A stretch of DNA of 32,000 nt from Halomicronema hongdechloris C2206 (lineage in GTDB: Bacteria; Cyanobacteriota; Cyanobacteriia; Phormidesmidales; Phormidesmidaceae): contig NZ_CP021983.2 in assembly GCF_002075285.3 (NCBI RefSeq), positions 1,440,001 through 1,472,000 of the forward strand. The letters are read 5' to 3'. The position numbers and the translations under genes are program-made. Under the pieces are notes generated by a model, which made no database searches, was not told the origin of the DNA, and was given only the letters and a program-made list of their open reading frames with translations. Below are positions 2,882-24,359 of the stretch, piece after piece; position 1 is the stretch's first letter, and every line of letters starts with the position of its first letter.

Positions 2882-2942
2882 TTGTTTATCGGCGACAGGG
2901 ATAAATCTCAGAATCTCTGTCGATTGCAAGAGGACGCTATTG

Positions 2943-7527: not shown

Positions 7528-7539
7528 GGAAAAGCTATA

Positions 7540-7785: not shown

Positions 7786-7967
7786 CTAGAGAATATGACT
7801 CACCAAATTCTTTTAGTTTCAGTGTGTAAACCTAGGCACTAAATCCAAGGTATTGCCGTAGAAAAACCATCAGTAATGACTGGATGTAAATCCAAATTGC
7901 TTGATGAAGCCTCTAATTCTTCTAATAAAGAAGCAAATTAAATTCTAACTTAGTTGAATTCAAAATA

Positions 7968-9572: not shown

Positions 9573-9707
9573 TATAATCATCATACTCATTGAAAATTGA
9601 AATTGAAAATATAGTTTAGTCAAATATATTGCCGGTGTCAGCTTCCATTTCTGATTTGATAAGCAAAATGAGAGTCTTGTCTAGCTTAAAAGATAGTCCA
9701 AGGTCCT

Positions 9708-10826: not shown

Positions 10827-10905
10827 TTGAATGGATTAATCAGGAGCCTAGGAAATAGTATCTATAAACTTTACTCACTTATGATTTTTACTTATCTTTA
10901 GCAGC

Positions 10906-12009
10906 ATGTCTTATCATAGTAAATTTCTCAGGAACTTCTTTAGTTATACTGCAGCTTGTATGCTCGTTGTCTTGGGAGTTAATGCATTTGTAGACCCTTA
11001 TGGAATTCGTAAGGCTGGAGGACGAGTTGCAAATGATCGATTAGTCAAAGCTATTAAGGTTTCTCAAATAAAACCAAAGGTTGTCTTTTTAGGATCATCA
11101 GGTGTTGCTAGGGGACTTAATCCTAGTCATACTGCTTTTTCAGAAAGTAGACCAGTTTACAATTTGTCTCTTTTAGGGGCTAGTATTTATGAAATAAAGC
11201 GATATTTTGACTACGCGGTTGCGCATAACAAACTTGAGCATGCCATTATTGGCCTTGATTTCTATGCATTTAATGACTCTAGGGAGGTAAGGCCTGGTTT
11301 TTCAGAAACAAGACTGAATTCCCAATATATTTCCCCTAAAGATCTTTTAGGCATTTATCTATCTCTTGATTCCCTCAACCTAGTAATGAATCCTGATCAG
11401 AGAGGATATTATTTCGCTGATGATGGAACATATGAGCATCGAATTCAAATAGGCATAGAACGCCAGTTCGAGATAAAGCTTATTGAAGACTTTACTCAGT
11501 CCGAACAAATGTATTGGAACTATAAGTTTTCTGAGGCAACAATTGGTCACTTTCAGTCAATAGTTGAATCTGCCGATTCAGAAGGGGTTAGAGTTGATAT
11601 TTTTCTACCTCCGTTGCATGCAACTTTATTTTATTCTGCAATGATGTCTAACTACTGGCCAACTTACGAAAAATGGTTAAAGAGAATTGTTAATATTCAT
11701 CCTGTTTGGGATTTTTCGGGATGTAATACTATTACTACCGAGCCAATCAGCGGAGAAATGAATTGGTTTGAGGATCCATCCCACTATACTGAAGAAGTAG
11801 GTGATCTAATCCTTAATAAACTATCTGAAGCTGAGAGTGGAAAGTCACTAAGAGACTTTGGCCAATATGTGACATCTGAAAATGTAAATGAGCACCTCCA
11901 ACAGGTTAGATCTCAATGCCAAAAATGGTCAAATTCTAACCCTAATATTATGCATTGGCTAGAGGAACTTAACCTAATAAATCGAATGAAGATCTCAACA
12001 GCAGAATAA
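10906..12009 (+). CDS. N-terminally anchored SGNH/DltD/AlgJ-like putative extracytoplasmic acyltransferase, paralog 2
   Basis: Collinear with the previous protein end to end. Shared blocks: VVFLGSSGV, YNL, LDFYAFN, PGFSETRLNS, FLPPLHATLF, HPVWDFSGCNTITT, EDPSHYT. Confidence 0.6.
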   Translation: MSYHSKFLRNFFSYTAACMLVVLGVNAFVDPYGIRKAGGRVANDRLVKAIKVSQIKPKVVFLGSSGVARGLNPSHTAFSESRPVYNLSLLGASIYEIKRYFDYAVAHNKLEHAIIGLDFYAFNDSREVRPGFSETRLNSQYISPKDLLGIYLSLDSLNLVMNPDQRGYYFADDGTYEHRIQIGIERQFEIKLIEDFTQSEQMYWNYKFSEATIGHFQSIVESADSEGVRVDIFLPPLHATLFYSAMMSNYWPTYEKWLKRIVNIHPVWDFSGCNTITTEPISGEMNWFEDPSHYTEEVGDLILNKLSEAESGKSLRDFGQYVTSENVNEHLQQVRSQCQKWSNSNPNIMHWLEELNLINRMKISTAE

Positions 12010-12087
12010 AAATATAATTTTATGAATTATCGAACCTATTATTTAATAATAGGATAGTAGAAGCTAAAGTCATCATCTGGCAACACC

Positions 12088-13623
12088 ATGGAATTTCCAT
12101 TACAGCATAAAACTTCAATTTCTTTCTCTTCAGGTGATCTTGACCTTTTTAGCAAGGCAAGCCATGATCGTAACCCTTTGCATCTCTCCGAAGACTATGC
12201 TCGCAAAACTCCATTTGCCCAACGTGTAGTTTTTGGCGTTTTGGGTGGTTTATCTTGTTTAAAGTATTTACAGGACCGAGCAGATTTTCAACTGAAAAAA
12301 ATTTTTCTAGAATTTTTAGGTCCCTTATTTATTAATCAGTTTTATTCATTAGAGATAACTGAAAGTTCACAGGAGCAAGTAACTGCGCGGATTTTCGATG
12401 GTAGACGCCTAATGCTAAAAATGAAAGTGAATTTTCGACCAGGAAATTCACCGACCATTCAGGCCGTATCAGCACAAGCCTCCCGTACCGAGGCTGTAAT
12501 GTTGTCGCCATCAGAACTGACTAGGGGCATTAAGTTGGATGAAGCAACATATTGCCCTAATCTTGAAGCATTACGTATATTAGCTTATCAACTGAGTTTA
12601 CCTGAGAAAGGTGTTGGTGAAGTAGAGATAGCCACATTACTTTGGGCAAGTTACTTCGTGGGAATGGAGTTACCAGGATTCCAAGCACTTTTTTCTAAGC
12701 TAACTCTTAGCTTTGAAAATTCTTTACCCAATCTAAAAAAACCATTTTCCTATACTAGTTCATTAACCTATTTTGACGACCGCTACAATTTACTGCGCAC
12801 AAAAGCTGAGTTATCTGATAACGGTAAATCATTTGCTACTGGAGAAATCCAATCCTTTATTCGCCCTACTTCAACTATTAGTACTTCTCAATATCTCGAG
12901 ACTCTACTGCCGAGTTCTGAATTCTTAAAGGGAAAAGTAGCCTTAGTAACAGGAGCTAGTCGAGGTTTAGGGGCTGCAATTGCACAATCGCTAGCATTGC
13001 AAGGATGTACCGTTCTAGCTAACTTTCTCCGAAGTTATCCTGAAGCTAAATCGCTACAGAAAGCGCTAGAAAATGCACCTGGCCAAGTTATTTTGATGCA
13101 AGGTAATGCAGCGGAATTATCTTGGTGTCTTTCAGCTAAGCAGGAAATTATTTCTAGATATGGCAAGCTAGACTTCTTGATTTGTAATGCTTGTCCTGCT
13201 ATATTACCCCTCTGGTTAGAGCCAACAGCTGTTGATCGGGTGAATGAATATGTCGCTCAAAGCCTAGCTCTCATGAGTGTACCAATGTCTACCTTTCTCA
13301 GTTTAGTATCTGAGAGCTTAGGCTGGAACATTGTTATTTCATCAATCTATGCCAGTCAAGCTTTTCCGGCAGACTTACCTCACTACGTTATCGCGAAATC
13401 TGCAATTGAAGGTCTCACAAAGGTAGCAGCCTCTGAATACAAGGATATTAACTTTGCTATAGTAAGACCTCCCAAATTGCTGACTGATCAGACAAACACG
13501 CCTATCGGTAGACAAAATGCTATATCTGTCGAGAAAGTTGCCGTTTCTATCACAGAGCATTTAAGAAATGTATCTAATAAAACTCAGATAGATATATTAG
13601 AGAATATTTGGGAAATAGATTAA
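12088..13623 (+). CDS. Fusion protein: MaoC-like (R)-hydratase/dehydratase hotdog region + classical short-chain dehydrogenase/reductase
   Basis: N-terminus ASHDRNPLHLSEDYARKTPFAQRVVFGVL is the MaoC hydratase D-x-N-P-x-H motif. The middle, about 150 aa, is probably a second hotdog repeat. C-terminus has KVALVTGASRGLGAAIA (TGxxxGxG), ISSIYAS and YVIAKSAIEGL (YxxxK). Confidence 0.8.
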   Translation: MEFPLQHKTSISFSSGDLDLFSKASHDRNPLHLSEDYARKTPFAQRVVFGVLGGLSCLKYLQDRADFQLKKIFLEFLGPLFINQFYSLEITESSQEQVTARIFDGRRLMLKMKVNFRPGNSPTIQAVSAQASRTEAVMLSPSELTRGIKLDEATYCPNLEALRILAYQLSLPEKGVGEVEIATLLWASYFVGMELPGFQALFSKLTLSFENSLPNLKKPFSYTSSLTYFDDRYNLLRTKAELSDNGKSFATGEIQSFIRPTSTISTSQYLETLLPSSEFLKGKVALVTGASRGLGAAIAQSLALQGCTVLANFLRSYPEAKSLQKALENAPGQVILMQGNAAELSWCLSAKQEIISRYGKLDFLICNACPAILPLWLEPTAVDRVNEYVAQSLALMSVPMSTFLSLVSESLGWNIVISSIYASQAFPADLPHYVIAKSAIEGLTKVAASEYKDINFAIVRPPKLLTDQTNTPIGRQNAISVEKVAVSITEHLRNVSNKTQIDILENIWEID

Positions 13624-13664
13624 TGGTTTTTCCCTAGGAATTGAATTTCAGTTTCCTAAAGATA

Positions 13665-14811
13665 TAGCAATCCCAGTTGATTTATGAACAAGGTGAATAT
13701 TCTTCTATTTTAGAAAAATCGAACTTTTGATGATCTATAAAGAACTCAAACAGATACTTTACAGCGGGGAAAGAACGACACAACCTCCAAAATCTTCTCA
13801 ATGAATTTTTGGCTTGTAACCAAACATCTTCCACTGGATTTTGTTCTGGTGAATTGGGTGCAAATAGAATACATTTGAATTGCCATTCTGTCTCTTCCTT
13901 CCCATGATTGACTGTAGCTAAAAAATCTTTGATCTCTTGTGACTTATGATAACTAGCGCCATCCCAAATTAATGCGATTTGCTTCCCAGGATTTTGTTCC
14001 TGCAAGTACTTCATAAAAGCAACTGTATTCTCTCCATTCCCTTTCTCGTAAGGATGCAAAATAAATTCTTTTGTTTGATAGTTTAATGCGCCATAATATG
14101 TTTGCCTGATTCTCTCGTTTGTAATAGGGATTTCGATTCGCATATCTGTCTTGCCCCAGACATATCCACAAACATCACCCCAAAGGAGATGACACTCATC
14201 CAAAAAAAGTACAATCAATTCCCCAGACTCAATTTTGAACTGGTTTTGACGGATAAATCCTTGGATTTCTTCTCTTTTTTTTTGACTAGAGCTGGATCAG
14301 ATTTCGGGTTGGTTTTTTGAGATTTCTTCCAACTAATACCTGCTTCCGAAAAAAGTGTATAGTAGCTTTGCTTAGACTTGTAAATCACATCATAATGTTC
14401 ATCTAAATATGAAACTAATTCATCAAAGTTCCAGTAGTTTCTGGTTCTCAGCCACGAGATAATTTCTGTACGATCATCTGGGGTTAGGTAACTTTTTGAT
14501 CCTTGGTAGCCGAGTTTAATACCTTCAATGCCTTGTGCTTCGAATCTGTTCTTCCAATATGTAATAAAAGACTTGTTTATTCCCAGAAATTTGGTAATCT
14601 TAAAATATGGCTCACCCTCCAATGCCATTTTTACAGCCAATGCTCGCTTAAGCTCTCTTGAATCAGGATTACTACTTATAAAGTCTGATAGAATAGCACG
14701 ATTATCTACTTTTTGTTGGTGTTCTAATTGAAAACTATTCATGAGTACAACTGTATTGACAGCTTGATGATATTTATATACTACCCATTCTAAACTCATT
14801 TAGGGTTGCTA
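13665..14811 (-). mobile_element. IS630-family insertion sequence with TA target-site duplication
   Basis: Imperfect terminal inverted repeats start with TAGCAA (13665-13688 versus the reverse complement of 14788-14811, 17/24 matches by eye). TA flanks each end (13663-13664 and 14812-13). The size, about 1.15 kb, fits one two-frame DDE transposase. Confidence 0.8.
13682..14799 (-). CDS. IS630-family DDE transposase, two overlapping frames joined by a probable programmed -1 frameshift
   Basis: OrfA (14215-14799) has an HTH-type N-terminus. OrfB (13682-14218) carries DECHLLWGD, IWDGASYHKS and NSPEQNPVEDVW (D, D, E). The orfB frame is -1 relative to orfA and stays open back through an A9 run (T9 on the + strand, 14275-14283). 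Slippage there gives ...ALVKKKREEIQGFIRQNQFKIESGELIVLFLDECH. Confidence 0.8.
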
Positions 14812-14989
14812 TATGGCGTAATCTATTTTTTAGAAACTGGAATTCCAGTTGTACCAGAGCATGAACTCTCATAAACTGCACAAGATCTGGACGGTAGTAA
14901 CTCAGGAATAATTTCAACTACTCCAGAGTAACTGATAATGGCAGCATCTTAACTTTTTAAACAAGATATATATTGTCTGTCTTTTATCC

Positions 14990-15084
14990 AAAAATAACCA
15001 ATCAGCATGGCCAAAAAGGCAGCTTTACATAGAAAATTTTTACGATATGAGTGCAATATCTTCTGTCTTTTATTGGTTATTTTT
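14990..15084. repeat. Perfect 13-bp inverted repeat (AAAAATAACCAAT / ATTGGTTATTTTT), each arm preceded by the 12-bp direct repeat TCTGTCTTTTAT
   Basis: Inverted-repeat arms at 14990-15002 and 15072-15084 with a 69-nt spacer. Direct repeats at 14976-14987 and 15062-15073. Both lie in the 570-bp AT-rich spacer between the IS and the kdsB-like gene. Confidence 0.6.
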
Positions 15085-15434
15085 CATATATTTCTAGTGA
15101 AAGACTGTATAAATAAACTTTGAGAAATGACATAGATTAAATTCTATAAGGAACTTCTTGATTGTATGAAATCGTATTTTTTAATTATACTAACATAAAG
15201 ATTTTCTGAGATAATCTTATACATTTAAAAGTAATCTGTTTATTTTTAAGGATTACATAGATTATCAGCTAAATGAAGTTGATTTCATAAAAATCGGATT
15301 TTGCCATGTTTTTTTAATAAAGCGATTCATTATATCTAGATGTGGAATACGATATTCGCTTATCCTATTAATGCTCGGAAAACTCCAATATGAAATTGGA
15401 GAAAAACGGATATTTGAGGAGTTTAGAGCTAAGA

Positions 15435-16166
15435 ATGATGGCTAAAGTGACAGGGGTTATACCTGCCAGATATAAATCAACTCGCTTCGAGGGTAAGCCT
15501 CTCGCTATTCTTGAAGGCAAAACCATGATCCAAATGGTTTATGAGAAATGTTGTAAGAGCAAACTCTTAGATCAGATCATGGTTGCTACAGATGATCAGC
15601 GTATCTACGATAACGTCTTATCTTTTGGTGGAAATGCAATTATGACCGAAACCAATATTGCCACTGGAAGTGATCGTTGCTATGAGGCCGTTAAGTATGA
15701 TAGCTGTGATATTGTAGTCAATATTCAGGGTGATGAACCACTCATTGATCCGAACGTCATCGATATTTGTATTCAGGCCTTGATAGATGCACCAGAAGCA
15801 GTGTGCTCAACCCCAGTAGTCAAATCAAATAACCCAGACGAGATTAATTCTCCCCATGCAGTTAAAGTAGTACTCAATAAAAAACTTGAAGCACTTTACT
15901 TCTCAAGATATCCAATCCCTTTTTTTCGTAATAATCTAGATGATGAAATCTATTATCGACATATTGGATTGTATTGCTATCGTAAATATTTCCTAGAACA
16001 ATTTGTCTCTATGGCCCAAACCTTTTTAGAACTTTCCGAGTCATTAGAGCAGCTTCGTATTTTAGAAAACGGATATAAGATTCAGTGTTGCCTAGTTGAT
16101 TATGAATCAGTTGGAGTAGATACCCCAGAAGATTTAGAGAAAGTTAAGCGGCTTTTGAAAATATAG
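15435..16166 (+). CDS. kdsB: 3-deoxy-ulosonate cytidylyltransferase (CMP-Kdo synthetase family)
   Basis: Alignable by eye to E. coli KdsB over the full length: GVIPARYKSTRFEGKPL, VATDD, TGSDR, VNIQGDEPL, AVKVVL, ALYFSR, HIGLYCYR, LEQLRILENG, GVDTPEDLEKV. The ORF opens at ATG 15390, but homologs begin just before the IPARY block, so ATG 15435 is preferred. Confidence 0.85.
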   Translation: MMAKVTGVIPARYKSTRFEGKPLAILEGKTMIQMVYEKCCKSKLLDQIMVATDDQRIYDNVLSFGGNAIMTETNIATGSDRCYEAVKYDSCDIVVNIQGDEPLIDPNVIDICIQALIDAPEAVCSTPVVKSNNPDEINSPHAVKVVLNKKLEALYFSRYPIPFFRNNLDDEIYYRHIGLYCYRKYFLEQFVSMAQTFLELSESLEQLRILENGYKIQCCLVDYESVGVDTPEDLEKVKRLLKI

Positions 16167-16205
16167 ATTTTATTATTAATTGAATACTACTGGAACTAAG
16201 AGGAT

Positions 16206-17246
16206 ATGCAGATGTTGACTAAAATTCCGAAGATTTCTTGTTCTCTTTTGGCGGCATTAGATAGTGATTACTCCCTAACAGATGTTCTAAAAAAACTAGA
16301 TATCGTTGGTGTAGATATTATTCATTATGACGTCAGTGATAATGCAAAGACTTTAGATCTTAAGGAGATTAATAAATTACGTACTAGCACCTGCCTACCA
16401 TTTGATGTACATTTAAGTGTCGAAAATCCCGATCCATATCTAAAAGATGTTCAGCTTCAGCCAGAAGATTATTTTTGTCTTCATGTTGAAAATAATCTGA
16501 GCTGGGCACAACTTGAAGAAGTACGACATAAGGTTGGTTGTAATTTTGGTTTGGCAATTAACACAGACACTCCTGTAAGTGATCTATTTGACAAAGCACA
16601 AATTCTCGATTATGTGCTGTTTATGTCTGCCACCCCTGGTGTTTCTGGTGGACAGTTTAACGATCAAGTAATCAGTAAGATCAAGGCATTTCGTCGCGCC
16701 TTTCCAGAGGTTAAAGTGCACGTAGATGGTGGTGTCAACCATTTATCTGCTGCCCTATTAAGAGAGTTAGGAGTTGATGTCCTCATCTCTGGTTCTTACA
16801 TCTTAAAAAATGAAGATTATCTAGTTCAGCTAACTAAGCTGTTTGGTAAGAACCTATACCTGCGTGTTGCCGATATTATGAGGGCTCATGAACAGGTACC
16901 TCGTGTCACCCCAGATACTGACATTTGTCAGACAGTCTTAGAAATGAATACTAAGTTGGTTGGTTGCACTTGTGTCGTAGATCATGACAACCGCTTGCTT
17001 GGTCTAGTGACGGATGGAGATGTTCGTAGAAGATTGATTCTTCAACCTGATTTGTCTAGTCTAAAGGCAAAGGATTTAATGGCAAAGCATCCCTTTGTTA
17101 TTACACCAGATGTGCGACTCCTTAATTTGCTACGGGAACTAGATAAGAGACGTGCAGGATTTGATGTGATTCCAGTTATAGATGCATCTGAACAATGTAT
17201 TGGTCTTGTCTGGTTACGAGATATTATTTCAAGTCACGCTTTATAA
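16206..17246 (+). CDS. Fusion: ribulose-phosphate 3-epimerase-like TIM barrel + KpsF/KdsD-like CBS-domain pair
   Basis: N-terminal about 215 aa carry RPE blocks IIHYDVSD (H-x-D...D), FDVHLS, MSATPGVSGGQF, VHVDGGV and ISGSYI. C-terminal about 125 aa are VADIM...LLGLVTDGDVRRRL...VIPVID...IGLVWLRDI, two CBS motifs resembling the tail of arabinose-5-phosphate isomerase. Alternative start ATG 16212 has GAGGA 7 nt upstream. Confidence 0.7.
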   Translation: MQMLTKIPKISCSLLAALDSDYSLTDVLKKLDIVGVDIIHYDVSDNAKTLDLKEINKLRTSTCLPFDVHLSVENPDPYLKDVQLQPEDYFCLHVENNLSWAQLEEVRHKVGCNFGLAINTDTPVSDLFDKAQILDYVLFMSATPGVSGGQFNDQVISKIKAFRRAFPEVKVHVDGGVNHLSAALLRELGVDVLISGSYILKNEDYLVQLTKLFGKNLYLRVADIMRAHEQVPRVTPDTDICQTVLEMNTKLVGCTCVVDHDNRLLGLVTDGDVRRRLILQPDLSSLKAKDLMAKHPFVITPDVRLLNLLRELDKRRAGFDVIPVIDASEQCIGLVWLRDIISSHAL

Positions 17247-17297
17247 GCTAGCAAACAGATTTCTTGATTCTCTCAGTACATAGATCTAGGTAAGGAT

Positions 17298-18320
17298 ATG
17301 ATTATTAAACTCAGCCAATCTTCTACCGATATGGCTCTAAAGCACCTGGTGAAATGGTTTGCTCAGCAAGATGTTGAAGCCCGTCAGATTAACTGGGGAG
17401 CTCAGGTATTATTGGTTACCTCTTCGAAATGGAAAGGGGACGCTGACTATCTCAAAAGTATAGATGGGGTTGAATCCGTTACTGAGATGACAGCAGATTA
17501 TCAACTCTGTACTCGTAAATTTCAACCTCAAGACACCGTGATTGATTTAGGTGACGGCGTCATTTTTGGTCGTGGTGCAACTGTCATGATGGCGGGTCCC
17601 TGTGCGGTTGAGTCAGAAGACCAAGTCATGCGGACTGCTGAATTTTTGCGTAGTAAGTTTGACATTAAAGTATTTCGAGCGGGGGCATTTAAGCCTCGCA
17701 CATCACCCTACACATTCCAAGGCCTTGCAGATGAAGGACTAAATTTGTTAGCCAAGGTTCGTAAAGAATTTGGCATGAAAATTATCACTGAAGTTAAAGA
17801 TACAACTCACCTGGCAGCAGTCGCTGATGTAGCTGACATCATCCAAATTGGAACCAAGGCCATGTACAACTTTTCCCTTTTGGCTATGTGCGGTCAGCTT
17901 AAGCAGCCAATTGTCTTAAAGCGGGGCTTTATGACAACAATTAAGGAGTTCTTGCAGGCAGCTGATTTTATTCTTAGCAGTGGTAACTCTAAGGTTATTC
18001 TATGCGAGAGAGGTATTCGTAGCTTTGAACCTCAAACCCGTTTTTGCTTAGATGTTTGTTCTGCTGCTTTAATCAAAGAGTTAAGCCATCTGCCCATTGT
18101 TCTCGATCCCTCACATGCCATGGGTATTGCAGCTCAAGTGCCTCTTGTTGCTCAATCAGCTGCGGCTTTAGGTGTTGATGGACTATTAATCGAGACTCAC
18201 CCTGATCCTGCTAATGCAAAGAGTGATAAAGAACAAGCACTGTCTTTTGAGGAATTTGGTCGAATAGTGCCAGTTCTAGATAAAATTTGCACTGCAGTAG
18301 GCCGGAGGCTGATTGCGTGA
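17298..18320 (+). CDS. Type I-beta DAHP-synthase-like PEP-utilising aldolase with Thermotoga-type N-terminal ferredoxin-like domain; substrate uncertain
   Basis: MMAGPCAVES (metal Cys), FRAGAFKPRTSPYTFQGL (a DAHPS-type KPRTS block, not the KANRSS block of KDO8P synthase), IIQIG, VLKRGF, ILCERGIRSFE, LDPSH, IETHPDP. The N-terminal about 90 aa (...SIDGVESVTEMTADYQLCTRKFQPQDTVIDLGD) resembles the regulatory domain of T. maritima DAHPS as I recall it. Confidence 0.75.
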   Translation: MIIKLSQSSTDMALKHLVKWFAQQDVEARQINWGAQVLLVTSSKWKGDADYLKSIDGVESVTEMTADYQLCTRKFQPQDTVIDLGDGVIFGRGATVMMAGPCAVESEDQVMRTAEFLRSKFDIKVFRAGAFKPRTSPYTFQGLADEGLNLLAKVRKEFGMKIITEVKDTTHLAAVADVADIIQIGTKAMYNFSLLAMCGQLKQPIVLKRGFMTTIKEFLQAADFILSSGNSKVILCERGIRSFEPQTRFCLDVCSAALIKELSHLPIVLDPSHAMGIAAQVPLVAQSAAALGVDGLLIETHPDPANAKSDKEQALSFEEFGRIVPVLDKICTAVGRRLIA

Positions 18321-18985
18321 GTTCCCTTCTCCTTGACTCCATTCTTGATAGTTGCCAAGCAGTCATCTTTGATATGGATGGCGTGATAGCAGATACTGAA
18401 CCACTTAAGTTTCAGGCTTATCAATTTGTATTTCGAGAGGAGTATGGGATTGAGCTACCAATCGAGGATATAGCTTGGCGAGGTATGAAAGAGCAGTCTG
18501 TAATTGCCTATTGGTTCAATAAATTTCAGCTGGTGGGTGATCCTCAGAAACTAATTGAGGATAAGCGAGCTGCCTACCATTCTCTTTTGGTGCAAGGTAA
18601 AATCACAGCAATACCTGGCATCATGGCATTTATCAAATATCTTCGATCGCTGGGCAAGTTGCGGGCAGTTGCCACGAGCTCTAGTTGCCAAGAGGCGGTT
18701 ATGGTATTAGAAGCTCTGCATATAAGGGATGCCTTTCATCAGGTTATAACTCGAGATGATGTGCAAAGAATGAAGCCTGATCCAGAAGTTTATCTTGCTG
18801 CAGCATCAGCCTTAGGAGCCAATCCATCTAATTGCATAGTCTTTGAAGATAGTCAGTCGGGAGTTGGTGCTGCTAAGGCAGCTGGAATGTTTTGTGTGGG
18901 AGTGTTAACTTCATTTTCAAGAAAATCTCTTGGGCCCGTCGACCAAGTAATCAATGATTTCACAGATTTAGCTATAAATTTTTAG
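18317..18985 (+). CDS. HAD-superfamily hydrolase, subfamily IA (beta-phosphoglucomutase/sugar-phosphatase-like)
   Basis: Motif I VIFDMDGVIADTEP, motif II AVATSS, motif III KPDPEVY, motif IV VFEDSQSGVGAAKAAGM. The in-frame GTG at 18317 overlaps the upstream stop (GTGA, 18317-18320), which suggests translational coupling. The ORF track opens at 18287. Confidence 0.8.
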   Translation: MSSLLLDSILDSCQAVIFDMDGVIADTEPLKFQAYQFVFREEYGIELPIEDIAWRGMKEQSVIAYWFNKFQLVGDPQKLIEDKRAAYHSLLVQGKITAIPGIMAFIKYLRSLGKLRAVATSSSCQEAVMVLEALHIRDAFHQVITRDDVQRMKPDPEVYLAAASALGANPSNCIVFEDSQSGVGAAKAAGMFCVGVLTSFSRKSLGPVDQVINDFTDLAINF

Positions 18986-19282: not shown

Positions 19283-20659
19283 ATGTCTACCAAGTTTCTT
19301 AAAGATACTATCCGGAAAATAATAGAACCACTAGAATCATCGATTTTGTCAGACAAATATTTTGGACTTCAAAAAAGCCTTGGCTATTCGGATAGGCTGA
19401 ATCTAGTTTGTAAGTATGCTCAGAACAAATTCAATTCCCAATCTTCGGAAGCATACCCTGAGATTACTTTCCTGCTTTATTCGAAGGCCTGTGAAAGGTT
19501 GTTAATACCGTTAGTGTTTAATTTATTACAGCGCCCAGAAGTTCAGGATGGAAAGATTCATGTCAATGTGATCGTGTTGTTTGGTATCCATCGCCTCAAA
19601 CTAATGGATTCTAATTTAGAGGAGTTGCAGAAGATGAGATGCCAAATTCAAACGGATTATTTTAGTTTGATACGTGCCTGCTATCAACCTAACCAAAAGC
19701 TAGTTGTGCTTTGCCTAGATCATCGTAAGGTTTATAGATATCACTTTTGGGGTGTCGACACCGTAGATACTTTGAAAAGTCACGGTGTAAGTACACTTTC
19801 TATTCAGCACGGTGGAACTCGTGCTGACAGTGTTGAAGAATTGGCTTCTGCAGCTTCAGATATGGTTCTGGTATGGGGAAAGCGAGTCTACAGAGAAATC
19901 GTGGAAAGATACAACGGAGATCCTCGCAGGTTTCACATAGTTGGTAATCCTTTACATGATCGGTTAGCTAATATTGATAATGTTCAAGTTCAAAGCCAAT
20001 TTAAGGACCACTATCCAGAAGTAAGTTCACAGCTAGGTCAAAAACACGTAGTTCTCTTAGCAACCTGTCTTCATACTGAATACCGAGGCATGGAGAATGA
20101 GGTGCAAATGTATCGAGATTACATTCGACATATTTATAGTAGTATTGATTTTTCTCGTACACTACTTCTAGTTAAGATGCATCCTCTCGATACATTAGCT
20201 CCTAATCTTTACATTCAAGCTATTCCTGATGAGAATTCTAAAAAATCAATAATAGTCATTGAGCCTACAGTCTCTAATTTAGATATTTACTCATTATTGT
20301 CAATTTCTGAGCTCCTAATAACCCGTGCCTCAACAGTTGCTGAAGAAGCAATGTTGATGGGAAAAAATGTTATTTCATTTGACCTTTTGCCAGACGGTCC
20401 CTCAAAGAACTATAGGCATTTAGAGGAGTATGGTAGCTACACTACTGTTTATGCAAACCCAGAAAACGAGCTAAAAAAAGCAATCAATTATTCTCTATCT
20501 GAGGCAGTATCAGAGCAGAATAAAAATACTTCTCTCATTGAAGAGGAGTTAACTTGCAGTTTAGATGGTCATTCAACCGATAGAGCTGTCAATGAAATTT
20601 TAACGTACTTTTGGCATAAAAACTATCAAAACTATTATGAAAACGGTTGCACTTGTTGA
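19283..20659 (+). CDS. GT-B-fold protein of the 2-epimerase / capsule-synthesis (KpsS/KpsC, TagF)-like superfamily; candidate glycosyl (ulosonate?) transferase
   Basis: Blocks SIQHGGTRADS, FHIVGNPLHDRL, LLLVKMHPLD (HP motif) and LLITRASTVAEEAMLMGKNVISFD resemble the two Rossmann halves of GT-B enzymes of this superfamily. The exact family was not resolved by eye. Confidence 0.4.
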   Translation: MSTKFLKDTIRKIIEPLESSILSDKYFGLQKSLGYSDRLNLVCKYAQNKFNSQSSEAYPEITFLLYSKACERLLIPLVFNLLQRPEVQDGKIHVNVIVLFGIHRLKLMDSNLEELQKMRCQIQTDYFSLIRACYQPNQKLVVLCLDHRKVYRYHFWGVDTVDTLKSHGVSTLSIQHGGTRADSVEELASAASDMVLVWGKRVYREIVERYNGDPRRFHIVGNPLHDRLANIDNVQVQSQFKDHYPEVSSQLGQKHVVLLATCLHTEYRGMENEVQMYRDYIRHIYSSIDFSRTLLLVKMHPLDTLAPNLYIQAIPDENSKKSIIVIEPTVSNLDIYSLLSISELLITRASTVAEEAMLMGKNVISFDLLPDGPSKNYRHLEEYGSYTTVYANPENELKKAINYSLSEAVSEQNKNTSLIEEELTCSLDGHSTDRAVNEILTYFWHKNYQNYYENGCTC

Positions 20660-21896
20660 TGCTAATCACGGTCGCGGTCATCATCTAACTTACATGAGGT
20701 TCTTTTGTAGAACATTACTAGAGTTAGGATATCGCACCTTGGTGTTTTATCCAGAACCTGATGCTGTGATAGATTGGCTCAAAATACATTTTCCTGAACT
20801 TATAGAGAACTTATATGTCTTTAGAATTGACGAATATGCTCATCGTAAAGTACCTCTAATCGGGAAAATTTCCTCTAAATTGCAACCTCTAGTGGTAATA
20901 GCGAGATGGAGGTATACCAACAGAATTATCAAGCAGGCAGTGAAGGCAGTTGGGCATGAACCTGATTTAGTATTCTTCAACTGGCTAGATAATTACTTAA
21001 GTTATTTTCTATCTCATCATCTTATCGACCTGATTTTCCCATTCAAGTGGTCTGGCATTTACTTTAGACCAGGAGACTTACGCTTCAAGAAGCGCACTTT
21101 CCTATCTCACTATGCGATCGCAAGATCACCTCGGTGTCAGGCCTTGACTCTTTTGGATGAAGAATTCTCTAGGATCATAGAAGATAAGTTAAATATCCCG
21201 ATTATTCCATTTCCAGATTTAACTGATGAAACGCCACCTGATACAGCACTAGGTGTTATTAAGCAGATAAAATTGCAAGCAAGGGACAGAAAAATTATTG
21301 GACTTATTGGTTCTTTAAGTAAGCGAAAAGGACTCTTTACTTTTCTTGAAGCAGCTCAAAGGCTAGTTGAAAAAGATTATTTTTTTGTCCTTGCCGGTCC
21401 TCTTAATAAAGCAACCTTTCACCAGGAATATGATCAAAAACTTTCAGATGAGTTTCAAAGATTGGAGAGAATGATAAAATCACCACCAGAAAATTGCTTT
21501 TTCTATCTCCAATCAATTCCAGACGGTGCCGAATTTAATGCTTTTATAAATATATTTGATATTCTATTTGCAGCCTATGAAAATTTTCCCTACAGTAGTA
21601 ATATTTTGACCAAGGCAGCTGTTTTTCGGAAACCGATTATTGTAAGTGATGGTTTTTGCATGGAAAAGAGAGTGAAAAGATTTCAGTTTGGATTGTCAAT
21701 TCCAGAAGGAAATGTAGCCGCATGTGTTAAGGCAATTCAACTTCTGTCTGAGTCATCTTCATCAGATGGTCTTAGCCTTGAATTCGATTTTGAAGGCTAT
21801 AAACAGCTTCATTCGACAAAGAGACTTGGCGAGATCTTTACAGCACTTTTAGGAGATCATGAGCTAAAGACAGCATTGAATGCTAGTAATTCTTAG
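20637..21896 (+). CDS. Glycosyltransferase, GT-B fold (GT4-like)
   Basis: MKTVALVDANHGRGHH N-terminus. C-terminal half has IGLIGSLSKRKGLFTFLEAAQRL...FFVLAGPL...ILTKAAVFRKPIIVSD, typical of the donor-binding domain. It overlaps the upstream gene by 23 nt. Confidence 0.6.
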   Translation: MKTVALVDANHGRGHHLTYMRFFCRTLLELGYRTLVFYPEPDAVIDWLKIHFPELIENLYVFRIDEYAHRKVPLIGKISSKLQPLVVIARWRYTNRIIKQAVKAVGHEPDLVFFNWLDNYLSYFLSHHLIDLIFPFKWSGIYFRPGDLRFKKRTFLSHYAIARSPRCQALTLLDEEFSRIIEDKLNIPIIPFPDLTDETPPDTALGVIKQIKLQARDRKIIGLIGSLSKRKGLFTFLEAAQRLVEKDYFFVLAGPLNKATFHQEYDQKLSDEFQRLERMIKSPPENCFFYLQSIPDGAEFNAFINIFDILFAAYENFPYSSNILTKAAVFRKPIIVSDGFCMEKRVKRFQFGLSIPEGNVAACVKAIQLLSESSSSDGLSLEFDFEGYKQLHSTKRLGEIFTALLGDHELKTALNASNS

Positions 21897-21940: not shown

Positions 21941-22996
21941 ATGAAAGTATTAGTGACTGGTTCAAGCGGCTTAATTGGTTCGGAAGCCGTTGAGTACTAT
22001 GATCGGGAGGACCATGAGGTCATTGGCGTAGACAATAACATGCGCGCTGAGTTCTTTGGTCCTAAAGGGGATACCATTTGGAATCTCAGTCGCCTGAAGG
22101 ATAGTACTCAAAACTTCGAACATCATAATATTGATATTCGTGATCGTGCTGCAGTCTTTCAGTTATTTGAGGAAAAGCCCTTCGATCTCATTATCCATTG
22201 TGCTGCACAACCCTCCCATGACAGGGCTTGCCAGATTCCTTTGCTAGACTTCGAAGTGAATGCATTGGGTACGGTTAATCTTCTAGAGGCAACTCGCCAA
22301 TTTTGCCCTGAGGCCGTATTTATTCATATGAGCACTAACAAAGTTTATGGAGATGCTCCTAACGAGGTACCTCGTATCGAATTAGAAAAGCGCTACGATT
22401 ATGAGCGCTCTGAAGACTATAATGGCATTTCGGAAGAATGTCGGATCGATCGGTGTTTACATTCTCTATTCGGTGCATCTAAGGCTGCAGCCGACATTGT
22501 AGCTCAGGAGTATGGTCGCTATTTTGGCATGAAGGTGGGAATCTTTCGCGGCGGTTGCTTGACTGGACCTTCTCACTCCGGTGTAGAGCTGCATGGCTTT
22601 TTATCTTACCTAGTGAAAGTAGCTGTCAATGGTGATACTTACAAGGTGTTTGGCTATGAAGGCAAGCAAGTTCGCGATAATATCCATAGCTATGATGTGA
22701 TCCAAGCATTTGAAGCATTTCGTTGTAATCCGCGCCCTGGGGAAGTTTATAATCTAGGAGGTGGACGAGGAAATAGTGTTTCTATCTTGGAAGCCTTTGA
22801 TCTAGTCAGTGACTTAGTAGGGCGAAAAATCCAGTGGATCTATGTCGACCAAAATCGCATCGGTGACCATATCTGCTATATTTCTGACCTCAGGAAAATG
22901 AAATCACATTTTCCTGGGTGGGATATTACTCGTAGTCTAGGCAATATTTTAGAGGAAATGGTTGAGGCCGAACAGGCACGATTAGTTCGGGTCTAA
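21941..22996 (+). CDS. Extended SDR, CDP-paratose/tyvelose 2-epimerase-like NAD-dependent epimerase/dehydratase
   Basis: [14 protein letters not shown] (GxxGxxG), [68 protein letters not shown]. The expected YxxxK Tyr is Phe (codon 22469-22471). Confidence 0.75.
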
Positions 22997-23195: not shown

Positions 23196-24359
23196 ATGTT
23201 TAAATTAGCTATTTCTAGAAGGCTAAATGTCCTAAACTTAGTTTCTGATAAACCGACATCAAAAACTTGGCTCCCATCTTTGGATGGATTACGTGCTATT
23301 GCACTACTGTTAGTTTTTCTAGAGCATGTCACCGGCAATGTTTTTGTCGAAGACGCTAGTAACGATGGATCTATTTCTACCGCTTTTTTGAATTTTGGTG
23401 ATGCTGGAATGGGTCGCTCAGGAGTTTATCTGTTTTTTGTACTGAGTAGTTTCCTGTTAACATCACAGCTACTTCGTCCGGGCATAAGACTTAAAAGTTT
23501 TCAGCTATGGATTAATTATGTATATAAACGATTGATCAGAGTCTATCCATTATATGTTTTTGTTTTAGTAGTCTATACTATTTTTTCTAGCTTCCAATAT
23601 AACATTCAAGACTTTTTTGAGCATGTAACTTTACAAGAGGCTGGAAATCATTTCTGGACAATTCCAGTAGAAGTAAAATATTACATATTGCTACCCAGCA
23701 TTGCACTCATAATAACCAAGCTTTTGAGGCGTAGACTATCGCTAGTTCTTATCGCTTTTACCGGAATTTCAATTATACTAAAGCTATTTGAATCGTCCAT
23801 TTTGTCTCTGGATCGTTTATCGCTTTTACCTCATTTGCCGATCTTCTTTATTGGTTCTATAGCAGCTTTAATTCATGTGGATTTATTTAGCAAGAGGGAC
23901 ATTGGTGTCAAATATAAGACCTGGATGGAGATAGTATCTATACTTTCAATACTCGCCATACTACTTAGCTATAAAACTGCTGCCAGTTCCTTTCTTTGGA
24001 ATCTTATTTTTGGCTATGAAATGCCAGAAATTCCTTCAAATCATTGGTTATATATCCTACATGGATTGCTTTGGTCAATCTTTCTGATATCTCACTTAAA
24101 TGGAAGAGGTTGGATAGGCGGTTTGTTAGCTTGGAAGCCACTACGATATATCGGTGTAATTAGCTTTGGTATGTATCTATGGCATATTGCTATCTTAGGT
24201 TATCTAAATGCTCATTTAGCTGTGCCTAGCATGATTAAATTTATTGCTATTTTCTGTGTTACATCAGCTGTTTCTACAGTGACTTACATTATGATTGAGA
24301 GACCTATAACGAAATTTAAGTTTCCATTTAACCAAAAATCTTACTACTTGACTAGATAG
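23196..24359 (+). CDS. Acyltransferase family 3 (OafA/WecH-like) integral-membrane O-acyltransferase
   Basis: LPSLDGLRAIALLLVFLEH N-terminal signature. About 10 predicted hydrophobic helices. ISFGMYLWH near the C-terminus. Confidence 0.8.
   Translation: MFKLAISRRLNVLNLVSDKPTSKTWLPSLDGLRAIALLLVFLEHVTGNVFVEDASNDGSISTAFLNFGDAGMGRSGVYLFFVLSSFLLTSQLLRPGIRLKSFQLWINYVYKRLIRVYPLYVFVLVVYTIFSSFQYNIQDFFEHVTLQEAGNHFWTIPVEVKYYILLPSIALIITKLLRRRLSLVLIAFTGISIILKLFESSILSLDRLSLLPHLPIFFIGSIAALIHVDLFSKRDIGVKYKTWMEIVSILSILAILLSYKTAASSFLWNLIFGYEMPEIPSNHWLYILHGLLWSIFLISHLNGRGWIGGLLAWKPLRYIGVISFGMYLWHIAILGYLNAHLAVPSMIKFIAIFCVTSAVSTVTYIMIERPITKFKFPFNQKSYYLTR

Follow-up and report, generated by a model that had tools for sequence, protein, structure and literature searches.

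The surface-polysaccharide locus of Halomicronema hongdechloris C2206 holds four packed co-directional genes (15435-18985, + strand of the 32,000-nt window, the whole stretch of DNA analysed), which encode, in this order, a KdsB-type cytidylyltransferase (KdsB1), a ribulose-phosphate-3-epimerase (RPE)-fold protein fused to CBS domains (RPE-CBS), a type I-beta DAHP synthase (DAHPS) and a HAD-IA phosphatase. We tentatively propose that this cassette is a self-contained source of a CMP-activated 3-deoxy-2-ulosonic acid that replaces Kdo in the surface polysaccharide, with RPE-CBS opening a route through D-threose-4-P to CMP-3-deoxy-D-lyxo-heptulosonate, a reading whose chance of being correct we place somewhat below even. 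If true, the product would be a Kdo analogue one carbon shorter, made by a previously undescribed route.

Organisation and conservation of the cassette

The four open reading frames reported in the initial annotation were all found in place on the + strand, with the described gaps of 39 nt (16166 to 16206) and 51 nt (17246 to 17298) and a GTGA overlap that could be read directly (GTG start at 18317-18319 over TGA stop at 18318-18320), and its domain assignments for the four genes were upheld by Pfam and NCBIfam. The gene bounds needed correction at three starts (Table 1); the refined KdsB-like, RPE-CBS and HAD sequences each matched public records exactly. KdsB1 most likely starts at ATG 15435 (243 aa), which is preceded by GAGGAG and exactly reproduces the 243-aa RefSeq model, and not at 15390 as in the longest ORF. 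The start of RPE-CBS was moved to 16212 (344 aa), and the HAD protein starts with the GTG at 18317 (222 aa, identical to ASC70437).

Six further loci of cyanobacterial type showed the same gene order, the RPE-like gene lay directly 5' of the DAHPS-like gene in all ten independent loci examined (33-91% identity), and the dN/dS values of the four genes were 0.02-0.19. The arrangement is thus far beyond chance, and all four genes are under purifying selection. The RPE-like/DAHPS-like pair spans several phyla, with Clostridia, Proteobacteria, a Tara Oceans contig and a phage-like contig among the ten loci, and at least 24 cluster pairs of the two families share an identical size of the largest contig. 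The RPE-like and DAHPS-like genes probably form a functional module. Fusions of the RPE-CBS type are rare; 5.8 billion proteins gave about 48 clusters, and about 185,000 species genomes gave 6 loci. Non-cyanobacterial modules carry an RraA-like gene and in some cases also a ThDP enzyme, and the scheme proposed here leaves the roles of both unexplained, which counts against it. The HAD gene is kept 3' of the synthase gene in L001, L003, L007, L008, L010 and L012. The cassette is located within a glycan island of 37% GC in a genome of 56% GC.

Table 1 Features of the locus, with positions in the window
Feature	Position	Strand	Basis
IS630-type insertion element, upstream of the cassette	13662..14814	-	DDE_3 and HTH domains
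Upstream module: FkbH-domain protein, ACP, MBOAT, DUF1574-like protein, unknown protein, MaoC-SDR fusion	5599..13623	+	
KdsB1: KdsB-type CMP-ulosonate cytidylyltransferase, cassette-specific clade	15435..16166	+	NCBIfam
RPE-CBS: RPE-fold barrel with KdsD/KpsF-type CBS pair	16212..17246	+	Pfam, Foldseek
Type I-beta DAHP-synthase-like PEP aldolase, N-terminal regulatory-type domain	17298..18320	+	NCBIfam, 1RZM alignment
HAD-IA (beta-phosphoglucomutase/YqaB-like) phosphatase	18317..18985	+	PF13419 114 bits; TIGR01509 75 bits (cutoff 29)
GT-B-fold protein XM38_013770, follows either cassette type	19283..20659	+	Sequence family, AF2 model
GT1-family glycosyltransferase XM38_013780, conserved assembly set	20637..21896	+	PF00534
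NAD-dependent sugar epimerase/dehydratase (SDR)	21941..22996	+	PF01370 133 bits
Acyl_transf_3 membrane O-acyltransferase	23196..24359	+	PF01757 105 bits
GT4 glycosyltransferase, 3' end of the low-GC island	24496..25749	+	PF00534, PF13439

Properties of the encoded enzymes

The synthase scored above the cutoffs of two DAHPS models (NF006421, 380 bits, cutoff 335; TIGR01361, 319 bits, cutoff 268) and failed the KDO8P synthase (KDO8PS) model (130 bits, cutoff 314). It matched Thermotoga maritima DAHPS (1RZM) over its full length, keeping C102, the KPRTSPY block, the K, R, H, E and D residues and an intact set of metal ligands, and the KANRS block of the KDO8PS type was not present. Phylogenetically, it grouped in a clade holding all RPE-linked synthases, nested with a DAHPS of housekeeping context (58% identity). 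Only A186T, T192F and E316S separate the RPE-linked clade from this relative, and no changes in the substrate motifs were found between them. Judged by its sequence, the cassette enzyme retains every DAHPS (tetrose-phosphate) signature, and it is a proposed candidate for a 3-deoxyheptulosonate-7-P synthase. The HAD-IA enzyme, for which Pfam and NCBIfam gave no KdsC/HAD-IIIA match, is likewise a candidate ulosonate-phosphate phosphatase; a precedent for a phosphatase other than KdsC is AtGPP2, the capped HAD enzyme that serves as the plant KDO8P phosphatase.

RPE-CBS contains a Ribul_P_3_epim domain (PF00834, 122 bits) and two CBS domains, and its top-scoring CBS-containing families were KpsF/KdsD (65 bits). 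It fell below the rpe equivalog cutoff (TIGR01163, 119 bits vs 212.6); its RPE-like domain shares 26-27% identity with Synechocystis RPE, and conserved loop features of RPE are missing from it. H40, D42, H69 and D174 do not vary, nor do the phosphate loops; in comparison with RPE, the MDGxFVPN loop is shortened by four residues, and of the three active-site Met residues two have given way to other residues, at position 44 to Ser, Thr, Cys, Ala or Lys and at position 71 to Ser, Thr, Ala, Cys or Ile. In the AF2 model (pLDDT 89.8), the predicted barrel resembled RPE (Foldseek TM 0.84-0.86) more closely than allulose-6-P epimerase, and the top CBS matches were the CBS pairs of arabinose-5-P isomerases. 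With its catalytic and metal residues invariant, its loop shortened and its Met residues replaced, RPE-CBS may be an active epimerase with an altered pocket, and we propose it as a candidate for the first committed step. The replacement of Met by smaller polar residues is not an obvious adaptation to a smaller substrate and counts against a tetrose phosphate.

KdsB1 exceeded the cutoffs of TIGR00466 (202 vs 155 bits) and NF003952 (300 vs 193 bits), and forms its own clade with 37-42% identity to canonical cyanobacterial KdsB, from which about 11 strictly clade-specific positions set it apart. The residues that correspond to E. coli Q98, D100, H181 and Y185 do not vary. Q98 and Y185 read the axial C5-OH, and their conservation is expected in any KdsB and thus weakly diagnostic. 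E. coli KdsB accepts Kdo-8-N3 and handles 5-epi-Kdo poorly (PMC12199768). L007 and L008 retain both KdsB1 and a canonical KdsB (KdsB2), each with a dN/dS of about 0.105.

Relationship to canonical Kdo loci

Orthologues of the downstream GT-B protein (41-57% identity) were found in Leptolyngbya NIES-3755, Geitlerinema PCC 9228, Baaleninema sp., Almyronema epifaneia and a metagenome contig. In four of these five loci (L017, L018, L019 and L100), canonical KdsD-KdsB-KdsA-KdsC genes lie 5' of the glycosyltransferase set, and in the fifth (Almyronema, L101) the contig begins at KdsC, ahead of the set; in all five, the GT-B gene directly follows the canonical Kdo cassette. L018, L019 and L101 also carry orthologues of GT4 (66-72% identity) and clear orthologues of GT1, the gene after GT-B (48-50%); the top GT1 match in L017 reached 25% only, and GT1 and GT4 of L100 were compared with L010 only. 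Since an orthologous set follows canonical Kdo genes, the cassette occupies the Kdo slot. This supports two points of the initial annotation, namely that the cassette follows a Kdo-like four-step logic with the cytidylyltransferase as the sole orthologous enzyme, and that it feeds the downstream glycosyltransferases.

In the GT-B tree, cassette-linked and Kdo-linked proteins were interleaved, which suggests compatible donors. Between the matched loci L010 (cassette) and L100 (canonical), GT-B was 82% and the flanking genes 78-89% identical, so that GT-B diverged no more than its neighbours across the cassette switch; an undiverged GT-B is most simply explained by a donor that stayed the same, namely Kdo. 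In L010, a canonical KdsA-KdsC fusion is retained, and neither KdsD nor KdsB2 was found within 18.8 kb. This gene set would fit a supply of arabinose-5-P by RPE-CBS and the activation of Kdo by KdsB1.

Proposed pathway and alternative explanations

The product of the cassette is probably not Kdo, as suggested by the DAHPS signatures, the separate KdsB1 clade, the two loci with both KdsB types and the one with KdsA-KdsC. The earlier idea of a heptulosonate in place of Kdo thus gains indirect support from the DAHPS-like substrate motifs, the KdsB1 clade and the coexisting canonical Kdo genes. From gene content, conservation, selection and synteny with canonical Kdo loci, we infer every substrate and product of the following route. 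The RPE-fold domain would epimerise C2 of D-erythrose-4-P to give D-threose-4-P through its conserved metal and acid/base site. Since erythrose-4-P is ribulose-5-P minus C1, the chemistry would equal that of ribulose-5-P to xylulose-5-P; to our knowledge, no tetrose-phosphate 2-epimerase has been described in the RPE family. The DAHPS-type enzyme would condense D-threose-4-P with PEP to 3-deoxy-D-lyxo-heptulosonate-7-P, the HAD-IA enzyme would remove the phosphate, and KdsB1 would form CMP-3-deoxy-D-lyxo-heptulosonate with CTP. DAHPS enzymes may accept D-threose-4-P, a point on which a literature search found nothing. The KdsD-type CBS pair would probably serve end-product control over the first committed step. 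3-Deoxy-D-lyxo-heptulosonate has the carbon skeleton of Dha, for whose biosynthesis we know of no route, and resembles Kdo in ring stereochemistry, with C8 alone missing. Such a ring would explain handling by a KdsB-type enzyme and by the glycosyltransferases of Kdo loci, and is consistent with the invariant Q98 and Y185 of KdsB1.

A serious rival, although in our view a rather unlikely one, is that ordinary CMP-Kdo is made by non-orthologous displacement. RPE-CBS would then replace KdsD by giving D-arabinose-5-P (through 2-epimerisation of ribose-5-P or isomerisation of ribulose-5-P), the DAHPS-like enzyme would be the KDO8P synthase, the HAD-IA enzyme would replace KdsC, as a capped HAD does in plants, and KdsB1 would be the KdsB of the donor lineage. 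The shared position ahead of orthologous transferases, the interleaved GT-B tree with high identity across the switch, the KdsD-type CBS pair and the gene set of L010 all favour this explanation, and canonical genes are partly or wholly missing from every cassette-type locus, as expected of functional replacement. However, the synthase passes the DAHPS and not the KDO8PS cutoffs and has KPRTSPY instead of KANRS, with unsubstituted substrate motifs; KdsB2, maintained by purifying selection beside KdsB1, would be redundant if both activated Kdo, and L010 would hold two synthase/phosphatase pairs making one product. In addition, the module occurs with ThDP and SDR enzymes in Clostridia and the phage-like contig, where Kdo is unexpected, and the phosphate loops and modelled fold of RPE-CBS are RPE-like, unlike those of allulose-6-P epimerase, which has a longer substrate.

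It is unlikely that erythrose-4-P is used directly, with CMP-3-deoxy-D-arabino-heptulosonate (DAH) or another heptulosonate as the product and with RPE-CBS in a different role, for example in regulation only or on some other sugar phosphate of this glycan. Although the synthase is a DAHPS by every sequence criterion, with erythrose-4-P as the textbook substrate, and the clade-specific KdsB1 positions could reflect a changed ring, the strictest linkage, that of the RPE-like gene to the synthase gene, would be left unexplained, and erythrose-4-P is a central metabolite that makes a dedicated supply enzyme unnecessary. DAH would carry the ring of 5-epi-Kdo, a poor substrate for E. coli KdsB, whereas the C5-OH readers of KdsB1 are unchanged, and this C5 epimer would need acceptance by transferases nearly identical to Kdo-linked ones. 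Chance clustering of a housekeeping shikimate DAHPS, a Calvin-cycle/pentose-phosphate RPE, a generic phosphatase and an LPS kdsB would agree with the generic names in public annotation and with the N-terminal regulatory-type domain of T. maritima-type DAHPS that the synthase retains, but is highly improbable given the gene order kept in seven cyanobacterial-type loci and the pair in ten across phyla, always inside glycan clusters. RPE and DAHPS are needed by every cyanobacterium, whereas the fusion is confined to so few genomes; the divergence of its RPE-like domain and the low GC of the island against the chromosome also argue against chance. For the last two reasons, the refuting case named in the initial annotation, with no DAHPS and no rpe in the genome other than those of the cassette, is very unlikely.

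Neighbouring genes

The GT-B family of XM38_013770 comprises 89 clusters, mostly cyanobacterial, with invariant H300-P301 and Q175-H176-G177. Its AF2 model (pLDDT 92) was nearest to generic GT-B folds in the PDB (UDP-GlcNAc 2-epimerases, TarL), and the protein is a candidate CMP-sugar transferase with a putative donor. The SDR is highly conserved, sharing 90% identity with its counterparts in L001 and L007 and 83% with that of L101, where the Acyl_transf_3 homologue (57% identity) occupies an equivalent position. The IS630-type element, whose transposase is broken up over two ORFs (14215-14799 and 13682-14218) between imperfect 27-nt terminal inverted repeats, was not found in the syntenic loci L001 and L007 and is outside the pathway. 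The upstream module, which encodes FkbH (TIGR01686, 301 bits), an ACP-like 81-aa ORF (7540-7785), MBOAT and MaoC plus adh_short domains, belongs to the low-GC island, shows synteny with L001 and L007, and probably serves the O-acylation of a glycan.

Gene models and enzyme families of the cassette

The initial annotation described four co-directional, tightly packed genes encoding a KdsB-type cytidylyltransferase, an RPE-like barrel with a CBS pair, a type I-beta DAHPS-like aldolase and a HAD-IA phosphatase. The packing was confirmed, with gaps of 39 and 51 nt followed by a GTG start overlapping the preceding TGA stop, and family-model searches bore out all four domain assignments. The four ORFs on the + strand stood as described, while three of the starts were refined (see the table). 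Public records of H. hongdechloris match the synthase, the GT-B protein encoded downstream and, with the starts corrected, the remaining cassette proteins exactly.

Coordinates of features in the window and in related loci
Sequence	Feature	Positions	Strand	Remarks
Window	Polysaccharide island	5200-25750		ca. 37% GC; flanks ca. 56% GC
Window	Upstream module	5599-13623	+	FkbH-domain protein, 81-aa ACP (7540-7785, DSM motif), MBOAT, DUF1574-like protein, 367-aa unknown protein, MaoC-dehydratase/SDR fusion
Window	IS630-type element	13662-14814	-	imperfect 27-nt terminal inverted repeats; transposase as two ORFs overlapping by 4 nt
Window	KdsB1 gene	start 15435 (not 15390)	+	15390-16166 publicly named as an ordinary kdsB
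Window	RPE-CBS gene	start 16212	+	16206-17246 publicly named 'ribulose-phosphate 3-epimerase' or 'CBS domain-containing protein'
Window	DAHPS-like synthase gene	17298-18320	+	publicly named '3-deoxy-7-phosphoheptulonate synthase'
Window	HAD-IA phosphatase gene	start 18317	+	
Window	GT-B gene	19283-20659	+	
Window	Gaps at sulfotransferase sites of related loci	18986-19282; 24360-24495		
L001	Sulfotransferase genes	13243-13770; 19184-20050		cassette type
L018	Sulfotransferase gene	5712-6620		canonical Kdo type
L019	Sulfotransferase gene	7648-8484		canonical Kdo type
L010	KdsA-KdsC fusion gene	15985-17397		Geitlerinema sp. BBD
L003	RPE-like/DAHPS-like locus	8568-15586		non-cyanobacterial
L005	RPE-like/DAHPS-like locus	8665-12005		non-cyanobacterial
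L012	RPE-like/DAHPS-like locus	2155-6273		non-cyanobacterial
L015	RPE-like/DAHPS-like locus	7378-12571		non-cyanobacterial
L014	Region with DAHPS paralogue (P0175)	8001-11254		spore-forming Firmicute

The KdsB-like protein (KdsB1) passed the CMP-Kdo synthetase models TIGR00466 (202 bits; cutoff 155.2) and NF003952 (300 bits; cutoff 193). The equivalents of E. coli Q98, D100, H181 and Y185 are conserved, and after the E. coli numbering of Q98 and Y185 had been checked, both residues, by which KdsB reads the axial C5 hydroxyl of Kdo, proved invariant in KdsB1. The KdsB1 clade is separate from canonical cyanobacterial KdsB, with 37-42% identity to the KdsB proteins of canonical loci.

RPE-CBS failed the KdsD test, having no SIS domain and a catalytic domain of the PF00834 family (122 bits). 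Its CBS pair is the only part that matched KpsF/KdsD (65 bits, residues 212-335); it is 34-37% identical to cyanobacterial KdsD CBS pairs, and in the predicted structure its closest PDB matches are the CBS pairs of arabinose-5-phosphate isomerases. In the barrel, the His/Asp/His/Asp metal and acid-base set (H40, D42, H69 and D174) is invariant and the RPE-type phosphate loops are kept, and the modelled fold matched RPE structures with Foldseek TM scores of 0.84-0.86, being nearer to RPE than to allulose-6-phosphate epimerase. The protein scored below the rpe equivalog cutoff (TIGR01163, 119 bits; cutoff 212.6), and its family has an MDGxFVPN loop with a 4-residue deletion after the HxD motif and replacements at two of the three active-site Met residues. 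The (beta/alpha)8 fold, the metal and acid-base set and the phosphate loops are shared with RPE and D-allulose-6-phosphate 3-epimerase (AlsE), but RPE-CBS is ca. 25-33% identical to RPE, carries a C-terminal CBS pair and in no case lay in a pentose-phosphate or Calvin-cycle setting. The possibility of an HPS- or KGPDC-like enzyme was rejected on the grounds of the RPE metal site and of membership of the RPE family.

The synthase passed the DAHPS models NF006421 (380 bits; cutoff 335) and TIGR01361 (319 bits; cutoff 268) and failed the KdsA models TIGR01362 (130 bits; cutoff 314) and NF003543 (129 bits; cutoff 242). It carries the KPRTSPY motif and is 27-29% identical to cyanobacterial KdsA. 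The alignment with Thermotoga maritima DAHPS (1RZM) ran over the full length, with the Cys, KPRTSPY, Lys, Arg, His, Glu and Asp positions kept, and the likeness to this shikimate-pathway enzyme extends to an N-terminal regulatory-type domain and to the metal, PEP and erythrose-4-phosphate motifs. Unlike it, however, the cassette synthase lies in a glycan island, is translationally coupled to a phosphatase, always has an RPE-like gene upstream and shows a G-T-K variant of the G-A-R/K motif, and its product is expected to be dephosphorylated and CMP-activated instead of being cyclised to dehydroquinate. The island setting, the RPE linkage and the low GC content argue against this protein being the housekeeping aromatic-pathway DAHPS of the genome. 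An enzyme of housekeeping context that is 58% identical to the synthase falls into the same clade, and just three conserved positions, none of them in the tetrose-phosphate motif, divide the RPE-linked synthases from this relative. Since almost no residues separate the two, use of erythrose-4-phosphate and of threose-4-phosphate cannot be told apart from the synthase sequence.

The HAD gene product passed the HAD-IA model TIGR01509 (75 bits; cutoff 29.4) and matched PF13419 (114 bits). It gave no match to the KdsC model TIGR01670, its best families being HAD-IA and beta-PGM, and a BLAST comparison with cyanobacterial KdsC sequences found nothing at E<=1e-3. Arabidopsis GPP2 has been described as a capped HAD KDO8P phosphatase with limited similarity to KdsC (bioRxiv 10.64898/2026.05.02.722439); the substrate of this plant enzyme is KDO8P, and like the HAD-IA protein as proposed here, it places a capped HAD at the ulosonate dephosphorylation step.

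Conservation of the gene unit

The fusion of RPE and CBS domains was found in ca. 48 clusters among 5.8 billion proteins, none of which is functionally named, and at six loci when one genome per species was considered (ca. 185,000 species). A metagenome scan with the RPE-CBS alignment, in which the peptide patterns were over-general, yielded no further fusions, its matches being CBS pairs of KdsD-like proteins and ordinary RPEs. The order KdsB-like, RPE-CBS, DAHPS-like and HAD recurs in the cyanobacterial-type loci of a metagenome contig (L001), two Elainellaceae (L007 and L008) and Geitlerinema sp. BBD (L010), and without HAD on a 3.4-kb contig (L009), which ends there; the same GT-B and GT1 genes follow wherever the contig reaches. 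An RPE-like gene was directly followed by a DAHPS-like gene in all ten independent loci examined, which include a Clostridia MAG, a Proteobacteria MAG, a Tara Oceans contig (33% identity of RPE-CBS) and a phage-like contig whose RPE-like protein lacks the CBS pair. In addition, at least 24 RPE-like clusters have a longest contig of the same size as that of a DAHPS-like cluster. RPE-like proteins, with or without the CBS pair, were always found beside a DAHPS-like aldolase in glycan loci of cyanobacteria, Chloroflexota, Bacillota, Elusimicrobiota, Proteobacteria and the phage-like contig. Purifying selection acts on each of the four cassette genes (dN/dS 0.02-0.19). Given the conserved order, the invariable pairing and this selection, chance clustering of housekeeping genes was set aside.

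The cassette on the 3.4-kb contig, which is assigned to an 'Oligoflexales' MAG, is 72-84% identical to the cyanobacterial versions, and the contig is most likely a cyanobacterial one that was wrongly binned. Between the two Elainellaceae loci, dS was 0.11-0.30 for KdsB1, RPE-CBS, DAHPS, HAD and GT-B, 0.67 for the second, canonical-clade KdsB (KdsB2) and 1.9 for MaoC-SDR, suggesting that recombination exchanged the cassette block at a later time than the adjoining genes.

Exchange of the cassette with canonical Kdo genes

The family of the GT-B protein comprises 89 clusters, most of them cyanobacterial. Upstream of the GT-B orthologue in Leptolyngbya sp. NIES-3755, Geitlerinema sp. PCC 9228 and a metagenome contig (loci L017 to L019), genes for KdsD (SIS+CBS), KdsB, KdsA and KdsC were found; GT1 and GT4 orthologues directly follow GT-B in L018 and L019, while L017 gave only a weak GT1 match (25%). 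For the unlabelled branches of the GT-B tree, it was predicted that one cassette type or the other would lie upstream, and both branches tested fitted the prediction: in Baaleninema (L100), KdsD-KdsB-KdsA-KdsC immediately precede GT-B, and the Almyronema contig (L101) begins with KdsC and continues with the five-gene order of the window (GT-B, GT1, NAD-epimerase, acyltransferase and GT4). Identities between the window and the canonical-type loci were 41-57% for GT-B, 48-50% for GT1 (L018, L019 and L101), 83% for the NAD-epimerase (L101) and 66-72% for GT4 (L018, L019 and L101). In the matched pair of Geitlerinema sp. BBD, which has the cassette, and Baaleninema, which has the canonical genes, the flanking genes are 78-89% identical and GT-B is 82% identical. 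Cassette-linked and Kdo-linked members are interleaved in the GT-B tree, which indicates that the sugar-supply module was swapped repeatedly beneath essentially the same assembly machinery.

The cassette thus has in common with the canonical CMP-Kdo pathway (L017, L018, L019 and L100) the four steps of aldose phosphate provision, PEP condensation, dephosphorylation and CTP activation, the slot upstream of orthologous GT-B, GT1 and GT4 genes, the KdsB family and, in the enzyme of the first step, a CBS pair of the KdsD type. It differs in having an RPE barrel for the SIS domain, an I-beta DAHPS (KPRTSPY) for the KDO8P synthase (KANRS type), a capped HAD-IA for the HAD-IIIA KdsC and a KdsB of a separate clade (ca. 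40% identical), and in being ordered KdsB-first instead of KdsD-first. That the Kdo logic is kept while three of four enzymes are replaced, as proposed from the sequence at the outset, is directly supported by the exchange of the supply module under orthologous glycosyltransferase genes, and the overall interpretation given then is likewise supported. The cassette is a nucleotide-ulosonic-acid supply cassette of non-orthologous enzymes, including an uncharacterised enzyme family. CMP-nonulosonate and CMP-Kdn pathways likewise condense PEP with an aldose or aldose phosphate, dephosphorylate where needed, activate with CMP and have their genes in glycan loci, but the cassette has a synthase of the DAHPS/KDO8PS family instead of NeuB, a KdsB-type instead of a NeuA-type cytidylyltransferase, and a predicted product of seven instead of nine carbons.

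Kdo-type sugars play a central part in bacterial envelopes and in plant pectin, and how they are made is regarded as well understood. The cassette would be a second way of building a Kdo-type sugar, block-exchanged for the canonical genes under nearly unchanged glycosyltransferases, so that the replacement of a pathway can be studied here as a clean natural experiment. It also sets apart a rare and uncharacterised family, the RPE-like proteins, some of which lack the CBS pair.

A fold search with the predicted structure of the GT-B protein returned generic GT-B neighbours alone (UDP-GlcNAc 2-epimerases, TM 0.55-0.67, and TarL), and no sequence match was found in the PDB. NCBIfam matches to BFO_1060 and TIGR04396 were weak and below cutoff, and the invariant HP motif is present. 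The comparison with CMP-sugar-dependent Kdo or sialyl transferases (GT99, GT107, GT38, GT52 and GT80) was based on weak or generic matches of this kind.

Retained Kdo genes and the predicted product

Both Elainellaceae loci carry KdsB2 together with KdsB1, and dN/dS of KdsB2 between them was 0.105, the same as for KdsB1. Both have therefore been maintained after the arrival of the cassette, which is unexpected for redundant enzymes. No KdsA, KdsC or KdsD was found within 21 kb of the cassette in these loci. Beside the cassette of Geitlerinema sp. BBD lies a gene for an intact 470-aa KdsA-KdsC fusion. Its two halves each scored above the curated cutoff, with identities of 85% and 76% to their Baaleninema counterparts, and neither KdsD nor a further KdsB was found within 18.8 kb.

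Based on these results, we tentatively propose that the cassette may be the first genetic route to CMP-activated 3-deoxy-D-lyxo-heptulosonate, which has the carbon skeleton of Dha, with an RPE-family D-tetrose-4-phosphate 2-epimerase, which would be a new enzyme activity, acting under KdsD-derived CBS control. Erythrose-4-phosphate is ribulose-5-phosphate minus the C1 hydroxymethyl group, and the distance from the phosphate to the carbonyl-adjacent carbon is the same in both. An RPE-type reaction on erythrose-4-phosphate would give D-threose-4-phosphate, which DAHPS enzymes reportedly accept, and the DAHPS reaction would then yield 3-deoxy-D-lyxo-heptulosonate-7-phosphate; after dephosphorylation, the sugar would correspond to Kdo minus C8 with identical ring stereochemistry. 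Since DAH made from erythrose-4-phosphate would have the ring of 5-epi-Kdo and the product from threose-4-phosphate that of Kdo, RPE-CBS would fix the stereochemistry of what ends up as the axial C5-OH, as KdsD does via arabinose-5-phosphate. The CBS pair may confer end-product control, and PDB 4O9K is presumably a CBS pair of the arabinose-5-phosphate isomerase type with CMP-Kdo bound. Literature searches for this gene combination, CMP-heptulosonic acids, threose-4-phosphate and the binding of CMP-Kdo by arabinose-5-phosphate isomerase CBS pairs found nothing pertinent. Epimerisation of DAHP itself was ruled out, since its C3 is a methylene and no carbonyl adjoins the carbon that lies as far from the phosphate as in the RPE reaction.

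Formation of CMP-Kdo by an analogous route appears rather unlikely to us, yet it stays a serious rival because of the genes retained in Geitlerinema sp. BBD and the Elainellaceae. The presence of KdsA-KdsC with neither KdsD nor KdsB2 nearby in the former, and of KdsB2 with no KdsA, KdsC or KdsD nearby in the latter, could mean that RPE-CBS supplies arabinose-5-phosphate, or the missing genes could sit elsewhere in the genome. The near-unchanged GT-B across cassette switches would also be explained most simply by an identical donor. On the other hand, a synthase that is a DAHPS at the sequence level, a KdsB1 clade of its own (37-42% identity to canonical-locus KdsB), the selection on both KdsB1 and KdsB2 in the Elainellaceae and the KdsA-KdsC fusion kept by Geitlerinema sp. 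BBD together argue against ordinary Kdo as the product. DAH or another heptulosonate as the product is the second rival and is improbable, and for DAH the ring would be that of 5-epi-Kdo. Among Kdo analogues, 8-azido-Kdo is tolerated by E. coli KdsB, whereas 5-epi-Kdo is a poor substrate and 5-deoxy-Kdo is not accepted (PMC12199768). The hardly altered transferases across cassette switches and the invariance of the KdsB residues that read the C5-OH argue for a product that would be very Kdo-like.

Dha shares the 3-deoxy-D-lyxo-heptulose skeleton with the proposed lyxo-heptulosonate but itself has a C7 carboxyl. Since the cassette has no evident C7 oxidase, Dha itself is not claimed as the product, and to our knowledge no Dha has been reported from H. 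hongdechloris. Dha occurs with Kdo in RG-II and prasinophyte walls (PMC3355719) and, according to a reference cited in PMC5713287, in the LPS core of Rhizobiaceae. RG-II reviews as of 2025 list both its biosynthesis and its activated form as unknown (PMC3355719, PMC12168206). If the lyxo-heptulosonate proposal is correct, the cassette would supply genes with which formation of the Dha skeleton could be tested for the first time, together with a candidate for the activated form of Dha-type sugars, and how plants, green algae and rhizobia make Dha, a long-standing question, would become open to experiment.

The island around the cassette

The polysaccharide locus is a low-GC island bounded by a PAS histidine kinase on one side and a TPR/GlgB region on the other, and the flank genes are ordinary (DnaJ-pentapeptide protein, PAS histidine kinase, GlgB, MurD and GlyS). 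In L001, the island occupies the same site and the kinase is 89% identical; this shared insertion site indicates that the island predates the split of the two strains. Scanning of the window for Rfam RNAs, tRNAs, promoters and terminators gave nothing above chance.

The module upstream of the cassette looks like a system for carrier-protein-dependent O-acylation of an extracellular glycan, with glyceryl-ACP chemistry feeding MBOAT. The IS630-type element lies between the MaoC-SDR gene and the cassette and is not present in the syntenic L001 and L007; it may cut the cassette off from an upstream promoter. Related loci of both cassette types contain sulfotransferase genes, which the window does not, and gaps of the window match their sites. 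The polysaccharide is probably sulfated in some strains, and the putative sulfated polymer recalls the sulfated Kdo/Dha-rich polymers of prasinophyte algae. The public names of the cassette genes include housekeeping labels (rpe and shikimate DAHPS) that mislead automated metabolic reconstruction, in which the proteins would be wrongly counted as pentose-phosphate and shikimate enzymes.

The RPE-like/DAHPS-like pair outside cyanobacteria

In the non-cyanobacterial loci (L003, L005, L012 and L015), the pair is usually preceded by an RraA-like gene of the class II aldolase/decarboxylase family, the stop/start of which often overlaps the module. In the Clostridia MAG and the phage-like contig, genes for an acetolactate-synthase-like ThDP enzyme and an SDR come after the pair, and the nucleotidyltransferase varies among loci, being of the PF00483 type or NeuA/PseF-like. 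These differing partners indicate that the pair is a two-enzyme unit that can be reused to supply differing chemistry downstream, and suggest a family of unexplored sugar pathways built on this core.

In L015 and L016, the stand-alone RPE-like gene lies amid long runs of very small ORFs, with a weak match to Acb1 (anti-CBASS); these contigs may be phage genomes with their own ulosonic-acid-type glycan genes. Two DAHPS paralogues of a spore-forming Firmicute (P0175 in L014, and P0179) are nested inside the RPE-linked clade. Both have lost the Cys metal ligand (AGPG in place of AGPC) and carry a KRRTSPY motif, and they may be pseudo-enzymes or have a changed function; the L014 copy adjoins genes for a NeuB-type synthase and a HAD-IIIA phosphatase.
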